A stretch of 64,000 nucleotides of DNA from Gammaproteobacteria bacterium. Its GTDB lineage: Bacteria > Pseudomonadota > Gammaproteobacteria > Steroidobacterales > UBA11654. The stretch is from positions 943 through 64,942 of the forward strand of contig JAQWSZ010000012.1 in NCBI GenBank assembly GCA_029242945.1. Reading direction: 5' to 3'. Below are positions 3,540-32,322 of the stretch, in pieces. The number at the start of each line of letters is the position of its first letter. Position 1 is the first letter of the stretch. Below the pieces are notes generated by a model. The model had not been told where the DNA came from. It ran no database searches and saw only the letters and a list, made by a program, of their open reading frames with translations. The translations under genes were made by a program, and so were the position numbers.

Positions 3540-3612
3540 TGCCGGGAAGAAGAATTGAACTTCTGACCTTCTGATTACGAATCAGTTGCTCTACCAACTG
3601 AGCTATCCCGGC
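3540..3612 (-). tRNA. tRNA-Thr (anticodon CGU)
   Basis: The reverse complement reads GCCGGGATAGCTCAGTTGGTAGAGCAACTGATTCGTAATCAGAAGGTCAGAAGTTCAATTCTTCTTCCCGGCA. It has a 7-bp acceptor stem (GCCGGGA/TCCCGGC), a D stem (GCTC/GAGC), anticodon loop TTCGTAA (CGT), a T arm (AGAAG-TTCAATT-CTTCT) and discriminator A. CCA is not encoded. Confidence 0.92.
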
Positions 3613-28155: not shown

Positions 28156-28740
28156 ATGACACACAGAACTGAAGAATTAAAAAAACTATCAGGTATACCT
28201 CACCTAATTAGAGAATTGAGATATCATGAATTTTCGAGGCAAAGTATCGGTATTATTTTGGTAAGTCTATTTGGCTTCACCACTGATTCAAATACACATA
28301 TAGCATTCCAGTCTCAACTGGCACAAATGATAATTATTCTAGGGCTTATTATTAGAATGTATGCATCAGGATTTGTCCTAAAAAATAAAGAACTCTCAAC
28401 TACAGGACCTTATGCCTATGTTAGACATCCTTTATACACAGGTAATATTCTAGTTTTATGTGGTATGGCTATCATCAATGGTCAAATTTGGGCTGGCCTG
28501 ATTGCCTTATCATTTTTCTGTTTTTACTACCCTGCTGCCATTGAATATGAAGATAGAAAATTAAAAGCATTATTTCCTGAAACATGGGAAAAGTGGGCTA
28601 ATAAAACCCCAGCACTAACTATAACATTCAAAAAAATTCATTCGTTAGAACTTGAGAATTGGTCTTGGAAAAAAAGTTTAATCCATAATTATGAGCCTGT
28701 AATTTTTATTTATGTATTGATTTGGCTAATAATACTCTGA
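28156..28740 (+). CDS. membrane methyltransferase of the isoprenylcysteine carboxyl / phospholipid methyltransferase (ICMT/PEMT) family
   Basis: Four to five TM helices and the family motif TTGPYAYVRHPLYTGNILVLCG. Confidence 0.7.
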   Translation: MTHRTEELKKLSGIPHLIRELRYHEFSRQSIGIILVSLFGFTTDSNTHIAFQSQLAQMIIILGLIIRMYASGFVLKNKELSTTGPYAYVRHPLYTGNILVLCGMAIINGQIWAGLIALSFFCFYYPAAIEYEDRKLKALFPETWEKWANKTPALTITFKKIHSLELENWSWKKSLIHNYEPVIFIYVLIWLIIL

Positions 28741-28765
28741 GTATTCTTCTTATAAGTTTTTCAAA

Positions 28766-29440
28766 ATGAAATCTGAGAAAAATATCGTTGACTCAGTTAA
28801 TAAAGCACTGCGTTCTGATCATAACGCTACTTTCATGCAAATGGGTTATCAAGGAATCTTATATAAAGTCAATATTGATGGGCTCAACTTAATTGTCAAA
28901 AAGGCAAATAAGTCATCATTTTTTACAGGCCGCCTTAACCAAAATAGTCTACATCATGAATACAAAATATATAAACAATTAAGAGGTTTGAAAGGTATAC
29001 CAAAATGCTATGGATTGACTGAGAAGGGGGACCTGATCTTAGAACTCATCAATGGGCAGACTTATCGTGAATCTCAATATGAACTAGAAGGCAATGATGA
29101 ATTTTTTAATCAACTATTGGCTTTAATTCAAGCCATGCATAGCTTAGGGGTGAGTCATGGTGATTTGAAAAGAAAAGATAATATTTTTGTTGATGAAGAT
29201 AAAAGGCCTTACCTTATAGATTTTGGAACAGCTATCTCCAATAAAAATATCAGTTGGGGAAATAAAATACTCTTCGCATTTATAAAAAAAACAGACTTAA
29301 ATGCATGGATAAAACATAAATACCGAAGAGACTATCAAAGCATTAATAGTAAAGACCTGAAATATTATTCACCCACTGTAGTTGAAGATATTTATAGATC
29401 TGCGAGAATACTTTGGTATAAAATTTTTAGAAATAATTAA
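28766..29440 (+). CDS. minimal protein-kinase-fold protein (RIO / Kdo-WaaP lipopolysaccharide-kinase-like)
   Basis: Catalytic loop VSHGDLKRKDNIFV and metal-binding LIDFGTA. VAIK-like LIVKKA lysine. Only 224 aa. Confidence 0.65.
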   Translation: MKSEKNIVDSVNKALRSDHNATFMQMGYQGILYKVNIDGLNLIVKKANKSSFFTGRLNQNSLHHEYKIYKQLRGLKGIPKCYGLTEKGDLILELINGQTYRESQYELEGNDEFFNQLLALIQAMHSLGVSHGDLKRKDNIFVDEDKRPYLIDFGTAISNKNISWGNKILFAFIKKTDLNAWIKHKYRRDYQSINSKDLKYYSPTVVEDIYRSARILWYKIFRNN

Positions 29441-29452
29441 TTAAAAAGAGAA

Positions 29453-29650
29453 ATGTTTGAAACACCTTTAATTTATTACTGGATCATCCCACTGATTACT
29501 TGGTCTGCTTTATGGAAAATAGCGGCTTTATGGAAAGCTGCTAGAAATAGACAATTAGCCTGGTTTATTGCTCTAGCTATCATCAATAGTGCAGGTATGC
29601 TTCCTATCTTATATATTTATTTTTATCAAAAAAATCAAAATCAAAAATAA
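29453..29650 (+). CDS. small two-helix membrane protein (DUF5652-like)
   Basis: Length 65 aa. The WSALWKIAALWKAARNRQLAWFIALAIINSAGMLPILYIYF pattern recalls DUF5652 proteins. Confidence 0.45.
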   Translation: MFETPLIYYWIIPLITWSALWKIAALWKAARNRQLAWFIALAIINSAGMLPILYIYFYQKNQNQK

Positions 29651-29657
29651 AAAACTC

Positions 29658-29685
29658 TTGACTTAATACTCAATTGATTCAATAT
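29658..29685 (+). promoter_or_regulatory. candidate promoter of the metY leader
   Basis: TTGACT (29658-29663), a 16-nt spacer, then CAATAT (29680-29685). The predicted start falls just before the structured leader. Confidence 0.3.
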
Positions 29686-29687
29686 AC

Positions 29688-29745
29688 GCACTGCACCGAT
29701 TTATTCCAACTTGCAGGTGCTTTATAAATACTGCTAAAGAGGATT
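29688..29745 (+). promoter_or_regulatory. structured 5' leader of metY; candidate SAM-II/SAM-V-like pseudoknot riboswitch (unverified)
   Basis: Hairpin GCACC (29693-29697) / GGUGC (29716-29720) with loop GAUUUAUUCCAACUUGCA. The loop segment AUUUAU (29699-29704) is complementary to the 3' tail AUAAAU (29724-29729), giving an H-type pseudoknot topology. The tail ends in GCUAAAGAGGA. The location upstream of metY is typical for SAM-II/V elements in marine bacteria. Confidence 0.33.
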
Positions 29746-29817
29746 ATGGTCTTAGATCTAAACCTGTTTAGTAATTTACTAACAGGTTTTTTTTATGATA
29801 GAGGACTTAAAAAATGA
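29746..29817 (+). CDS. possible 23-codon leader ORF overlapping the terminator hairpin and coupled (ATGA) to metY
   Basis: ATG at 29746 to TGA at 29815-29817 translates to MVLDLNLFSNLLTGFFYDRGLKK. The stop overlaps the metY ATG (29814). AAGAGGA lies only 2 nt upstream, which is suboptimal spacing, so the call is weak. Confidence 0.2.
   Translation: MVLDLNLFSNLLTGFFYDRGLKK
29761..29794 (+). terminator. intrinsic-terminator-like hairpin plus U-tract in the metY leader
   Basis: AACCTGTTTAGTAA / TTACTAACAGGTT form about 11 bp with one bulged T. This is followed by a T run (29889 not included; T at 29787-29794 partly in the stem). It sits 20 nt upstream of the metY ATG, consistent with an expression platform. 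Confidence 0.5.
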
Positions 29818-31088
29818 AAATTGAAACAAAAGCCATTCATTCCGGCTATACACCGGATCCAACAACCAAATCGGTAGCAACACCAATTTACCAAACCACG
29901 TCTTATGCCTTTGATAGTGCTCAACATGGAGCTGATTTATTCTCCTTAGCTGAGGAAGGCAATATTTATAGCAGAATTATGAACCCAACTAATGCTGTTC
30001 TTGAAGAAAGATTAGCTCAAATGGAAGGAGGAATTGCTTCGTTAGCAGTTTCTTCTGGAATGTCTGCCATAACTTATGCCGTTCAATGTTTAACTTCGAC
30101 AGGCCAAAACATAGTATCTGTCAGTGAATTATATGGTGGAACAAGTGATTACTTCTCAAATACGCTAAAAAATCAAGGTATAGAGGTTCGGTATGCCAAT
30201 CATGATGATATCGACGGCTTATCTAATTTGGTTGATGAAAATACTACATTAATATTTTGTGAATCAATTGGAAACCCTTTAGGTAATATTTGTGACATTG
30301 AGTCATTAGCAAAAGCAGCTCACTCCAAAGGTGTGCCCTTGGTAGTGGATAACACTGTCGCTACGCCATATCTTTTAAGGCCTATTGATTATGGAGCTGA
30401 TATTGTTGTCCATTCACTAACAAAATACATTAGTGGACATGGAACTACGATTGGCGGTGCCATAATTGACGGGGGTAATTTTGATTGGTCTAAAGAGCCA
30501 AAACGTTTTCCAACCTTAAATGAACCAGATAATTCATACCATGGACTAATTTATTCAGAAGCACTAGGTGCTGCAGCATTTATAGGAAGATGCAGAGTTG
30601 GTCCTTTGAGAAATACAGGAGCAGCATTATCACCCTTTAATGCATTCTTGATTCTACAGGGGATTCAGTCATTGCACGTTAGAATGGACAGGCATTGTGA
30701 AAACACAATCAATGTTGCTAACTATTTATCAACACATAGCCAAGTCAAATGGGTCAATTACGCTGGACTGGAAAATAGTCCTTACTTTGATTTAGCAAAA
30801 AAATATACTGATGGCTCACCTTCTGGTATTTTAACTTTTGGTATTGAGGGTGGAAAAGAAGCAGGCATTAAGTTTATTGATTCTCTTGAGCTAATTGTTC
30901 GCTTGGTCAATATTGGTGATACTAAATCACTAGCCACACACCCAGCTTCGACCACACACAGTCAATTAGAACCTGAGGAATATGAAGCCGCTGGTATTTC
31001 AGATGACATGATAAGAATATCCATTGGAATCGAAAATGTGGATGATATTATTGGTGACATTGAGCAAGCATTAAGTAAATCAGTATAG
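29814..31088 (+). CDS. metY: O-acetylhomoserine aminocarboxypropyltransferase / sulfhydrylase
   Basis: Cys/Met-metabolism PLP enzyme with the PLP-lysine motif HSLTKYISGHGTTIGG. The 424-aa MetY-type N-terminus is MKIETKAIHSGYTPDPTTKSVATPIYQTTSY. Confidence 0.92.
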   Translation: MKIETKAIHSGYTPDPTTKSVATPIYQTTSYAFDSAQHGADLFSLAEEGNIYSRIMNPTNAVLEERLAQMEGGIASLAVSSGMSAITYAVQCLTSTGQNIVSVSELYGGTSDYFSNTLKNQGIEVRYANHDDIDGLSNLVDENTTLIFCESIGNPLGNICDIESLAKAAHSKGVPLVVDNTVATPYLLRPIDYGADIVVHSLTKYISGHGTTIGGAIIDGGNFDWSKEPKRFPTLNEPDNSYHGLIYSEALGAAAFIGRCRVGPLRNTGAALSPFNAFLILQGIQSLHVRMDRHCENTINVANYLSTHSQVKWVNYAGLENSPYFDLAKKYTDGSPSGILTFGIEGGKEAGIKFIDSLELIVRLVNIGDTKSLATHPASTTHSQLEPEEYEAAGISDDMIRISIGIENVDDIIGDIEQALSKSV

Positions 31089-31096
31089 GAAAAAAA

Positions 31097-31342
31097 ATGG
31101 ATGTTGCAGATCTTCTTGTGTCCTTAAAGTCAGGAATTGTAAAAGTAGAATTTAAAAGCTTAAATTCAGGAAAGACAAAACAAGTGATCTGCACTCTTCA
31201 TGAGTCATACCTTGAAAATCATACAACAATGAATCAAGACACTTTAAATGAATCTATTTTGGTCTATAAAATAGATTCCAATGAGTGGGAAGATATTCGT
31301 GTTGATTCTATAGTTAAGTGGGATCTTACCAAAGGAAGATAA
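31097..31342 (+). CDS. small hypothetical protein (SH3-like beta-barrel pattern common in marine phage and bacterial genomes)
   Basis: Length 81 aa. The VKVEFKSLNSGKTKQVICTLHES...ILVYKIDSNEWEDIRVDSIVKW pattern matches the V-x-F-x-K-x-x-G-x-x-R/K-x-x-x-C-T-L ... W-R/E-x-x-R-x-D-S-I family recalled from phage genomes. The family name is not certain. Confidence 0.45.
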   Translation: MDVADLLVSLKSGIVKVEFKSLNSGKTKQVICTLHESYLENHTTMNQDTLNESILVYKIDSNEWEDIRVDSIVKWDLTKGR

Positions 31343-31428
31343 AAAACAACCTTAATTAGAACTATTGTTTTGATAATAAATATGATTTCATGTTTCTTTA
31401 TTTTTATTAATATTATTTATCACTGGTA

Positions 31429-32322
31429 ATGAAATATATTCTTGATTGTGGAATGGGAACAGAACTTTCCTCTAGAGGCTTTAATGTCCCTGATTGGAAA
31501 AAATCAATTTGGTCTGCTCAAGTATTATTAGAACATCCTGATGCCATTATTGAGGTTCATAAAGACAACATAGCTGCAGGTTGTAATATCATTACTACCA
31601 ACAATTACTATGTCACACCAACCATATTAAGCAGAAACGGTATTGAACATAAAACAAACGAACTAACACAATTAAGTATCGATTTAGCTAAGACTGCTAA
31701 AAATGGGAATAAAGATGTATTAATTGCAGGATCTTTCCCACCAATGGAAACTAGTTTTAGACCTGATTTAACACCCTCAAAAACAATAATGGATGACTTT
31801 TACTCCTCTATTGGTTCGATTATGGAAGAGCAAGTGGACATCATCCTTTGTGAATCAATGAGTTCAATAAAAGAAGGAATTACAGCTGCCAGCAATGCTG
31901 TGAATTATTCCGATAGGGTTTGGTTAAGCTGGACAACGAGAAATATCCCTAAAGGCTCCCATTTAGTCTCGGGAGAATCATTTGAAAATGCTATAGAAGC
32001 AGCAAACAAACTTAATATTGAATGCCAATTACTCAATTGCCTAGCTGCAGACTTAGTTACAGAGGAAATAGAAACTCTAAAAAAAGCCGGTACTTTTGGA
32101 ATGTTTCCAAACTCAGCAGTGCTAAAAGATAAAGAACAGATTAAAGATTTTGGTAAAGAAGTAGATGTTGATGTTATTCATCATACTAATACAGTTAAAA
32201 TATCCCCTAAAGAATACGCCATGGAAGCTAGAAAATGGTTAGAACATGGTGCCTATGTAATAGGCGGTTGTTGCAGCACTACTCCTGAACATATTAAAGA
32301 AATATCAAAACTTATCGAGTAA
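31429..32322 (+). CDS. homocysteine S-methyltransferase (Pfam S-methyl_trans type; BHMT/MmuM-like)
   Basis: N-terminal LDCGMGTEL motif. Zinc-ligand cysteines NCLAAD and GGCCSTTPEHIKEI. Confidence 0.85.
   Translation: MKYILDCGMGTELSSRGFNVPDWKKSIWSAQVLLEHPDAIIEVHKDNIAAGCNIITTNNYYVTPTILSRNGIEHKTNELTQLSIDLAKTAKNGNKDVLIAGSFPPMETSFRPDLTPSKTIMDDFYSSIGSIMEEQVDIILCESMSSIKEGITAASNAVNYSDRVWLSWTTRNIPKGSHLVSGESFENAIEAANKLNIECQLLNCLAADLVTEEIETLKKAGTFGMFPNSAVLKDKEQIKDFGKEVDVDVIHHTNTVKISPKEYAMEARKWLEHGAYVIGGCCSTTPEHIKEISKLIE

Follow-up and report, generated by a model that had tools for sequence, protein, structure and literature searches.

The spacer 5' of metY in the 64,000-nucleotide stretch of DNA analyzed here (the window) raises the question of what controls this gene. 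The start codon of metY, which encodes an O-acetylhomoserine sulfhydrylase (Cys_Met_Meta_PP, E 5.7e-134), is the ATG at 29814-29816, and the gene context consists of metY together with an S-methyl_trans gene. The spacer at 29658-29816 very probably represents the promoter and 5' leader of metY, in which a SAM-II class riboswitch acts as a transcriptional OFF switch. All features described below lie on the forward (+) strand, and every feature listed in an initial annotation of the locus was recovered upon re-reading of the sequence. The exact MetY protein of the window is found on 124 contigs, with relatives on dozens more.

The assignment to a riboswitch family is based primarily on covariance models. 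In the leader region, which was searched in E-value mode rather than at the gathering score, Rfam family RF00521 (SAM_alpha) matches at 29683-29758 with 28.3 bits and an E-value of 9.7e-5 for a 271-nt search, corresponding to about 0.02 by the authors' own rescaling to the 64-kb window. The score falls below the gathering score of 36 bits, and a comparison of the 64-kb window with Rfam at that threshold reported only a tRNA and left the leader unreported. Nine other orthologous metY leader types, taken from marine gammaproteobacterial metagenomes, all match RF00521 with 26.8-39.2 bits, L176 (39.2) alone passing 36, and no other Rfam family matches the 10 leaders consistently. The search with SAM-II, SAM-V, and SAM/SAH models that had been suggested beforehand thus yielded the RF00521 match and none for the other two; SAM-V, SAM/SAH, and SAM-II-long-loop gave no match at E<=10 in the window leader, nor did SAM-V (RF01826) at E<=1 in the leaders of the relatives. 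The initial annotation had described the aptamer as SAM-II/SAM-V-like from the words CGAUUU, CUUGC, and GCUAAAG, all of which are present in the leader; the SAM-II part of that description is supported by the RF00521 matches in 10 of 10 leaders, and the SAM-V part is abandoned in view of the missing match and the missing P3 hairpin.

The comparative material was assembled in several ways. When collections of genomes and metagenomes were scanned with MetY, the matches listed were almost exclusively relatives of 61-67% identity, plus one 95% locus (L081), and among these listed matches the element was recognized by regular expression in L004 and L081 only; a covariance model built from 12 aligned aptamers likewise found it at none of the other listed MetY loci. 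Intermediate relatives were obtained by protein search and exact-protein look-ups. The resulting alignment of 12 sequences comprises the 10 leader types (the window and nine others) and the copies from L004, a locus carrying two SAM-II aptamers in series, the first of which is followed by a terminator.

The putative aptamer extends over about 29692-29743, as delimited by the RF00521 match, the orthologues, the invariant core, and the covariation of P1. The SAM-II family (RF00521, SAM_alpha) was reportedly introduced as the metA motif by Corbino et al. in 2005, and the metX SAM-II structure is said to be that of Gilbert et al. in 2008. The helix assignment adopted here by homology follows the description of the metX crystal structure, from which the residue roles are also taken (core residues U10-U12, U20-G22, and C43-A47; PMC3303485). 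P1 is formed by GCACC (29693-29697) and GGUGC (29716-29720), as indicated by the RF00521 alignment and by covariation, while GAUUU (29698-29702) would provide the third strand of L1. P2a would pair UCC (29705-29707) with GGA (29741-29743), as suggested by homology and RNAalifold, and P2b would pair UUGC (29711-29714) with GC-U-AA (29733-29737), as suggested by homology and pairing; L3 (29721-29732) contains no hairpin in the folds. In this register, U29735 would be the equivalent of U44, the partner of the SAM adenine, and binding of SAM by the window aptamer may be expected from the same homology.

Conservation of the core is consistent with this assignment. The AUUU, UUGC, GCUAAA, and GG words are invariant in 12 of 12 aligned sequences, and the first three are placed by cmscan on the matching RF00521 consensus positions in the window as well as in the relatives; by this correspondence, the probable equivalents of the SAM contacts (U10-U12, U20, U21, and U44-A46) are unchanged in all 12. 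Pairing amounts to 100% in the UUGC/GC-U-AA helix and to 75-92% in UCC/GGA, in columns that are invariant and with a register taken from the solved structure, and RNAalifold independently predicts UCC/GGA and GCAG/CUGC. P2a comprises only 3 bp. A C29710-G29739 pair (C19-G48) was considered and rejected: C29710 is constant, but its partner varies among G, U, and C, so that 6 of 10 leaders are unpaired. Position 29739 would instead suit an internal loop, in keeping with the register that the description of the crystal structure implies.

Covariation in orthologous leaders, a check proposed at the outset, was detected in P1, where both-sided, compensatory changes occur at three of the six pairs and 97% of cells are paired in the 12-sequence alignment, values reached by 0-3 of 500 shuffles; this support appears only when the L004 copies join the 10 close leaders. 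Within the 10 close leaders, no two-sided covariation was observed in the pseudoknot, the terminator base, or the antiterminator, because these columns hardly vary, and covariation tests at this level are uninformative for every model, whether proposed here or in the initial annotation. Therefore, those three helices rest on conservation, energetics, and homology. A different pseudoknot had originally been drawn between AUUUAU (29699-29704) and AUAAAU (29724-29729), which are indeed present and complementary. A 2-nt deletion in 5-6 of the 12 sequences removes its two outer pairs without compensatory change, and it does not correspond to the SAM-II pseudoknot, as the L1 uridines of the solved structure form a third strand on the P2b helix of CUUGC and GCUAAA (PMC3303485).

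The window leader and established SAM-II elements have in common the P1 hairpin and the words GAUUU, CUUGCA, and GCUAAAGAGG in the same order and spacing, as well as the potential for an H-type pseudoknot with P2a and P2b. They further share a promoter directly before P1 and an intrinsic terminator between aptamer and ORF (PMC1273637), and metY as the regulated gene (PMC4239095). Differences exist as well: the loop is 3 nt shorter, P2a consists of 3 A/U-containing base pairs instead of the typical five G-C pairs (PMC6061858), P1 has 5-6 bp with a U.G pair or mismatch at its ends, and the host is an uncultured marine gammaproteobacterium of about 34% G+C instead of an alphaproteobacterium. As a combined result of these deviations, the gathering score is not reached by nine of the 10 family members, among them the window.

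SAM-V (RF01826) precedes metY and bhmt in 'Candidatus Pelagibacter ubique', and resembles the window leader in its marine, AT-rich setting, its position before metY, its ligand-binding triplex core, and its short P2a. That SAM-V occurs 5' of metY in marine bacteria and shares its binding core with SAM-II (PMC6061858, PMC2704228) would favor an aptamer of the SAM-V or SAM/SAH type, or one that resembles SAM-II but has a changed ligand specificity, but readings of this kind are extremely unlikely. SAM-V carries a P3 hairpin in the connecting loop, works without a terminator, and controls the RBS directly, the RBS being inside P2a; the window leader, in contrast, has no P3 in L3, no match to the corresponding covariance models, a terminator/antiterminator platform combined with P2a (UCC/GGA) as in SAM-II, and a separate, free RBS. 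A change of ligand would also be difficult to reconcile with the probable equivalents of the SAM-contacting residues, all of which are unchanged.

Transcription of the SAM-II leader probably begins a few nucleotides 5' of P1. The promoter candidate at 29658-29685 consists of a -35 hexamer TTGACT (29658-29663), a 16-nt spacer, and a -10 hexamer CAATAT (29680-29685), as the initial annotation had proposed. It is weak by consensus (8 of 12 positions), and a promoter scan of the leader did not report it because its -10 hexamer has only three of six consensus positions. The proposal is nevertheless borne out by positional conservation: in all 10 leader types, a TTGAC/TTGCA hexamer is followed after 16-17 nt by an xAxxAT hexamer, and this pair keeps a constant distance of 6-8 nt from P1 despite differing upstream genes and differing sequence farther 5'. 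According to Corbino 2005 (PMC1273637), a promoter is usually located a few nucleotides 5' of P1 in SAM-II elements.

These observations also bear on the reading in which no riboswitch exists, the hairpin serving constitutively to terminate transcription of the DUF5652 gene upstream, and the likeness to SAM-II being a chance product of AT-rich sequence. The Rfam score under threshold, a z-score of only -1.9 for the leader fold, and the A-U richness of all triplex and pseudoknot pairs agree with it. However, a promoter separates the hairpin from the upstream gene, and the leader travels with metY, being kept in relatives whose upstream neighbors differ and in some cases lie on the opposite strand; in addition, RF00521 and no other family is matched consistently by 10 of 10 leaders, and P1 covaries. 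The comparative sequence data already contradict this reading, leaving it next to no probability.

Downstream of the aptamer, an intrinsic terminator at 29760-29794, which would represent the SAM-bound state, is evident as a hairpin followed by U8. Its stem is composed of AAACCUGUU(U)AGU and ACUAACAGGUUU with the loop AAUUU, the core spanning 29763-29786 and the U8 run 29787-29794, and it folds when the tail and the loop core are barred from pairing. The hairpin and T-run noted in the initial annotation are therefore confirmed as a terminator conserved in nine of 10 leader types, in which the hairpin stands on a CCUG...CAGG base with differing upper stems and loops and a U-run of 8-11 nt, the lower stem being 91% paired and the core hairpins alone having energies of -4.7 to -9.7 kcal/mol. 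A simple terminator scan did not detect the leader hairpin because a bulged U interrupts the stem. SAM-II riboswitches often carry terminators (PMC1273637) and are mostly transcriptional (PMC6061858).

The proposed SAM-free state is an antiterminator hairpin at 29733-29772, supported by folding, duplex energy, and conservation, in which the aptamer tail GCUAAAGAGG (29733-29742) pairs at nine of 10 positions with the 5' arm of the terminator, CCUGUUUAGU (29763-29772), and the variable linker at 29743-29762 forms an inner stem-loop. This pairing belongs to the minimum-free-energy fold of the window leader. Since folding of the full-length leader by itself reveals no switch, truncated, nascent-like transcripts were used together with duplex energies and shuffles. 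When transcripts are ended before the 3' arm of the terminator, folding yields the pairing of tail and 5' arm as the minimum-free-energy structure for all 10 leader types (-8.8 to -17.8 kcal/mol). In the alignment, 92% of the cells of this helix are paired, compared with 26-55% after shifting the 3' partner by 1-3 columns. In each leader, the tail forms its best duplex with the 5' arm, at -8.1 to -14.5 kcal/mol versus about -4.5 for shuffles, a value attained by 0 to 18 of 1000 shuffles. Two mutually exclusive helices are thus present in all orthologues. In L175, the 3' arm of the terminator is absent, yet the 5' arm is kept, and L004a, an independent lineage, displays the same terminator/antiterminator logic in another sequence. 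In full-length leaders, the minimum-free-energy fold favors the terminator in seven of 10 leader types; therefore, the ON state would depend on co-transcriptional kinetics.

A different antiterminator had been proposed initially, in which the 3' strand of P1, CAGGU (29714-29718), pairs with ACCUG (29762-29766), so that SAM would lock P1. Both segments occur in the window and are 100% complementary in 10 of 10 leaders, but CAGGU is fixed by P1 and ACCUG by the terminator and the tail, each independently, and their conservation is therefore uninformative. The pairing, although possible on paper, is used by none of the 10 minimum-free-energy folds of nascent transcripts, in all of which P1 forms alongside the hairpin of tail and 5' arm; it would comprise 5 bp over a 43-nt gap, compared with 9-10 bp for the tail pairing. 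Moreover, the reported target of stabilization by SAM is not P1 but the pseudoknot and triplex of L1/P2b (PMC3303485, PMC3326309). Use of CAGGU:ACCUG is accordingly very unlikely, and the antiterminator is likely to be the pairing of tail and 5' arm. The earlier idea of a SAM-responsive transcriptional OFF switch is upheld for its aptamer and terminator by the RF00521 matches, the invariant core, P1 covariation, and conserved terminators, and is revised in its antiterminator.

Taken together, the leader most likely stops transcription at its built-in terminator when SAM is plentiful. Transcription would start just 5' of P1, and upon binding of SAM the aptamer would close as an H-type pseudoknot and triplex, with the L1 uridines over the UUGC/GC-U-AA helix and P2a (UCC/GGA) formed, thereby holding the 3' tail GCUAAAGAGG. 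With the tail held, CCUGUUUAGU would pair with ACUAACAGG to build the terminator hairpin ahead of U8, and RNA polymerase would halt before metY. Without SAM, the free tail would pair with CCUGUUUAGU once transcribed, and the resulting antiterminator hairpin would block the terminator, so that metY would be transcribed and translated from its own RBS. That site, at 29800-29816 (AGAGGA at 29800-29805, an 8-nt spacer, and the ATG), lies 3' of the terminator and 57 nt downstream of the aptamer tail and is not part of the switch; in the relatives, GGAG or GAGG is located 6-8 nt 5' of the metY ATG, directly after the U-run. An equivalent arrangement is known from Sinorhizobium meliloti metZ, where a Rho-independent terminator can form once the SAM-II aptamer has bound SAM (Scheuer et al. 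2022, PMC9373788).

A translational component was suggested in the initial annotation by a 23-codon ORF, MVLDLNLFSNLLTGFFYDRGLKK (29746-29817), whose translation would be gated by the riboswitch, with ribosomes melting the terminator or coupling to metY through ATGA. In the window, its ATG follows AAGAGGA-UU, the frame spans the terminator, and its TGA overlaps the metY ATG (29814); in S. meliloti metA, too, the SAM-II aptamer contains an SD, and its leader also includes an AUG1, a terminator, and, further downstream, an AUG2 (PMC9373788). The start codon, however, occurs in the window alone, being ACG in L081 and L181 (94-95% relatives) and absent at that position from L161, L167, L171, L178, L175, and L176. 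Four of the nine relatives lack any leader ORF of at least 8 codons, the peptide is not conserved, and the overlap of stop codon and metY ATG is unique to the window among the 10 leader types. Furthermore, the SD-like sequence and the ATG are 2 nt apart, five leader types carry UAGG or CAGG in place of the SD-like GAGG, and metY is served by a well-spaced RBS of its own. By sequence comparison, such hybrid attenuation seems largely refuted already and has only the slightest probability, and the ORF is judged to be a strain-specific accident that is probably not a functional part of the element.

In the S. meliloti metA leader, a GAGG in the tail is followed closely by an AUG and then by a terminator, with the real start about 74 nt downstream (PMC9373788), and the window has the same layout, its GAGG lying 72-75 nt before the metY ATG. 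In the window family, by contrast, neither the post-tail AUG nor the SD-like tail is conserved, metY is supplied with a separate RBS, and there is no sign of translation 'at a distance'. It is highly unlikely that SAM also acts on translation or through coupled ribosomes, on top of the transcriptional switch, be it by way of a strain-specific uORF created by an ACG-to-ATG change (C-to-T, 29746-29748) or of the AAGAGGA tail as a SAM-gated standby site. This uORF begins within the expression platform of the SAM-II element and terminates at the start codon of metY. The AAGAGGA tail is situated 72-75 nt 5' of the metY AUG, and for S. meliloti metA a standby site of this kind has been proposed.

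Tandem SAM-II and SAM-II/SAM-V 'bi-mechanism' arrangements have been described (Sherlock et al. 2022, PMC9481103), and the related L004 is likewise tandem, whereas the window possesses a single aptamer. A covariance model built from the 12 aligned aptamers detected no second copy in the 64 kb, and a search for a second SAM riboswitch 5' of the S-methyltransferase gene (31060-31460) found nothing above noise. The downstream homocysteine S-methyltransferase gene is probably also under the control of the SAM-II switch in the metY leader.

Among about 200 complete proteobacterial genomes surveyed previously, SAM_alpha was found in two alphaproteobacterial orders only, and metY is the core member of its regulon (PMC4239095). 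The metY leader described here is an ordinary SAM-II riboswitch and leaves the understanding of riboswitches unchanged. The family offers a compact example of the 3' strand of a SAM-II pseudoknot doubling as the antiterminator strand, together with a natural variant, L175, without the 3' arm of the terminator. Very probably, a clade of uncultured marine gammaproteobacteria that are abundant and AT-rich has metY under SAM-II riboswitches missed at the standard Rfam threshold, and adding these leader sequences to the RF00521 seed would raise recall in low-G+C genomes.

metY clearly encodes a Cys/Met PLP enzyme (E 5.7e-134), the next gene encodes a homocysteine S-methyltransferase, and the G+C content of the window is ~34%. 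All the leader elements listed in the initial annotation are found by reading the sequence at 29400-30000: on the + strand, a promoter candidate (TTGACT 29658-29663, a 16-nt spacer, CAATAT 29680-29685), the P1 arms GCACC (29693-29697) and GGUGC (29716-29720), the words CGAUUU, CUUGCA and GCUAAAGAGG, a bulged terminator hairpin AAACCUGUU(U)AGU...ACUAACAGGUUU followed by eight U in all (29760-29794), and a 23-codon ORF (29746-29817, +) whose ATG lies 2 nt after AAGAGGA and whose TGA overlaps the metY ATG (29814). After the U-run, and 8 nt before this ATG, metY has its own RBS, AGAGGA (29800-29805, +).

The aptamer had been described as possibly SAM-II/SAM-V-like, of which the SAM-II part stands. 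In an E-value-mode search of 271 nt, positions 29683-29758 match SAM_alpha/SAM-II (RF00521) from end to end with 28.3 bits (E 9.7e-5), under the gathering score of 36 bits, and P1 together with the GAUUU, CUUGCA and GCUAAAGAGG blocks lines up with the consensus. The SAM-V and SAM/SAH models gave no match at E<=10 in the same 271 nt, and the lack of a P3 hairpin in loop L3, along with the presence of a P2a helix and a terminator, disfavours SAM-V and indicates SAM-II (PMC6061858, PMC2704228). At gathering thresholds, the Rfam search of the 64-kb window returned nothing besides one tRNA gene (3540-3612, -, 72.6 bits).

Orthologous leaders were gathered by protein search followed by exact-protein look-ups, yielding relatives with 72-95% MetY identity and ten distinct leader types, the window counted; two MetY-based collection scans gave, among the matches listed, mostly relatives at 61-67%. 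The same aptamer lies directly 5' of metY in all ten types, each matching RF00521 (26.8-39.2 bits), and the L176 leader, at 39.2 bits, exceeds the gathering score. Each also carries a TTGAC/TTGCA hexamer, a 16-17-nt spacer and an xAxxAT hexamer 6-8 nt before P1, so that the proposed promoter, which was missed by a promoter scan and has a weak -10 by consensus, recurs throughout, in agreement with the account of SAM-II by Corbino et al. (PMC1273637). A covariance model built from 12 aptamers (the ten types and two copies from the more distant locus L004) found no further copy in the window or in ~165 other metY loci.

The upstream neighbours of the ten leaders vary, some lying on the opposite strand. 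In the window these are a DUF5652 membrane protein (65 aa, 29453-29650, +) and, at 28156-29440, a small protein-kinase-like/Kdo-family protein and a PEMT/ICMT-type methyltransferase, a block whose synteny is limited to the 94-95% relatives; among more distant relatives, unrelated genes adjoin metY and its leader. In L176, the opposite strand carries a tRNA gene (5-78, -, 69 bits) ~60 nt upstream of the riboswitch promoter; the other strand of this stretch gives a spurious Plastid-ycf2 match. Downstream of metY, an 81-aa ORF (31097-31342, +) with a weak, sub-threshold WYL_2 match (22.6 bits, cut-off 26.7) precedes the homocysteine S-methyltransferase gene; the 94% relatives have a 36-aa ORF called at this place, and the AT-rich 86-nt spacer at 31343-31428 gave no match in an Rfam search. 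The MetY start is called further upstream in several relatives, either at an ATG directly after the terminator U-run (L181-L185:1201-1221; P0009, 430 aa), whose window counterpart (29795-29797) is out of frame, or inside the riboswitch (L179/L180; P0020, 446 aa). Such N-terminal extensions seem to be artefacts of annotation and obscure the leader.

Across the 12-sequence alignment, AUUU, UUGC, GCUAAA and GG are unvarying. Covariation is seen for P1, which is 97% paired with two-sided changes in three of six pairs, and not for the P2 pairs, which never vary here and thus rest on conservation and homology. In the metX SAM-II crystal structure, SAM is stacked between U21 and G22 and paired with U44, U11 forms a triple with U21-A45, and U12 touches A46 (PMC3303485). 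By homology, the window pseudoknot is predicted to comprise C29714-G29733, G29713-C29734, U29712-A29736 and U29711-A29737, with a 3x3 internal loop, U29735 opposite the ligand, U29700-U29702 as third strand, and P2a between UCC (29705-29707) and GGA (29741-29743); RNAalifold, limited to pseudoknot-free folds, chooses these same P2 helices over P1. The AUUUAU:AUAAAU pseudoknot originally proposed between L1 and L3 shows no compensatory change, has lost both outer pairs to a 2-nt deletion in 5-6 of the 12 sequences, and conflicts with the solved SAM-bound fold, where the L1 uridines make the triplex.

The terminator proposal holds: a hairpin built on CCUG...CAGG and a run of 8-11 U are kept in nine of ten leader types, the upper stems and loops varying by type (AGU/ACU, GC/GC, CG/CG, GAGC/GCUG, or none). 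The aptamer tail GCUAAANAGG (29733-29742) and the terminator 5' arm CCUGUUUAG(U/C) (29763-29772) are complementary, with 9/10 positions paired in the window, 10/10 in L161, L167 and L179, and 92% of cells paired overall vs 26-55% when slid. Position 29739, which is G, U or C, faces the G of CCUG, so that U or C there strengthens this helix. In every leader, the tail forms its most stable duplex with the 5' arm (-8.1 to -14.5 kcal/mol; shuffled downstream sequence ~-4.5 +/- 1.5 kcal/mol), energies reached by only 0-18 of 1000 shuffles. When transcripts are truncated immediately upstream of the terminator 3' arm, P1 and the tail:5'-arm hairpin make up the MFE fold in all ten types (-8.8 to -17.8 kcal/mol), with a variable linker stem-loop inside the hairpin. 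Blocking the tail and loop core, as a mimic of the SAM-bound pseudoknot, lets the terminator form. The earlier antiterminator, CAGGU:ACCUG, is a possible pairing but is absent from all these folds, and both its arms are under constraint on other grounds. Two independent observations support the tail:5'-arm pairing: the terminator 3' arm and U-run are gone from L175, where CCUGUUUAGC is kept, and the first L004 aptamer differs in both its tail (AAAGCG) and its terminator arm (CGCUUGAG) and yet shows the same pairing.

For the full leader, the terminator is in most types the thermodynamically favoured fold, so read-through would have to be a kinetic, co-transcriptional outcome, as is normal for transcriptional riboswitches. 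The SAM-bound pseudoknot would hold the tail and loop core and allow termination, and a free tail would pair with the 5' arm, permitting co-transcriptional read-through into metY. Judged from sequence and folding, the metY leader is very probably a SAM-responsive transcriptional OFF switch, as first suggested, with its proposed helices corrected. Terminators have been known in SAM-II elements since their first description (PMC1273637), these riboswitches are mostly considered transcriptional (PMC6061858), and metY is the core SAM_alpha target (PMC4239095).

The initial annotation had also offered a hybrid in which translation of the leader ORF would melt the terminator. The ATG of this ORF (29746) reads ACG in L081 and L181, the 94-95% relatives, the other seven types have no start codon there, an ORF of at least 8 codons between tail and metY is missing from four of nine relatives, no conserved leader peptide was found among the compared leaders, and the ATGA overlap occurs in the window only. 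The AAGAGGA ahead of the ORF is the SAM-II tail (consensus GCUAAAgAGG), its equivalent being UAGG or CAGG in five types. Together with the separate metY RBS, this comparison gives the hybrid no support, and it is rejected. The arrangement recalls S. meliloti metA, with an SD in the aptamer, AUG1, a terminator and AUG2 74 nt downstream (PMC9373788); by this analogy, a similar translational layer in the window leader would be a low-probability case.

In L175 (1085-1203; Logan DRR337522 contig, MetY 74% identical), where the aptamer and CCUGUUUAGC are kept, a hairpin GCAUUUC...GAAAUGC encloses the metY GGAG RBS and forms in folding with or without the tail blocked. L004 (2382-2550), from the gammaproteobacterial MAG KW1-S05_58 (JAPUHH010000172.1; MetY 66%), carries two SAM-II-like aptamers in tandem ~460 nt before metY, resembling catalogued SAM-II pairs (PMC9481103): aptamer 1 (2382-2446) is followed by the terminator ACCCGCUUGAGUAGUACUUAAGCGGGU and U-run (2453-2485), and the tail of aptamer 2 (2483-2550) runs into GAGAUGG. 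Against Rfam, E<=1 is reached by the first copy only (22.4 bits); the 12-aptamer model gives ~55 bits for both, which stand in its training alignment.

SAM-II is reported to be mainly alphaproteobacterial and to occur also in beta- and gammaproteobacteria (PMC1273637, PMC2704228). A survey of ~200 complete proteobacterial genomes found SAM_alpha in Rhizobiales and Rhodobacterales only (PMC4239095). The present family comes from uncultured marine MAGs labelled 'Gammaproteobacteria bacterium', with one cluster member labelled Thiotrichales. Its loop is shorter than in typical SAM-II, P2a has 3 bp and contains A/U, and P1 is short; these departures account for its sub-threshold RF00521 scores. 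The window leader is a new, sub-threshold member of the well-known SAM-II riboswitch class.
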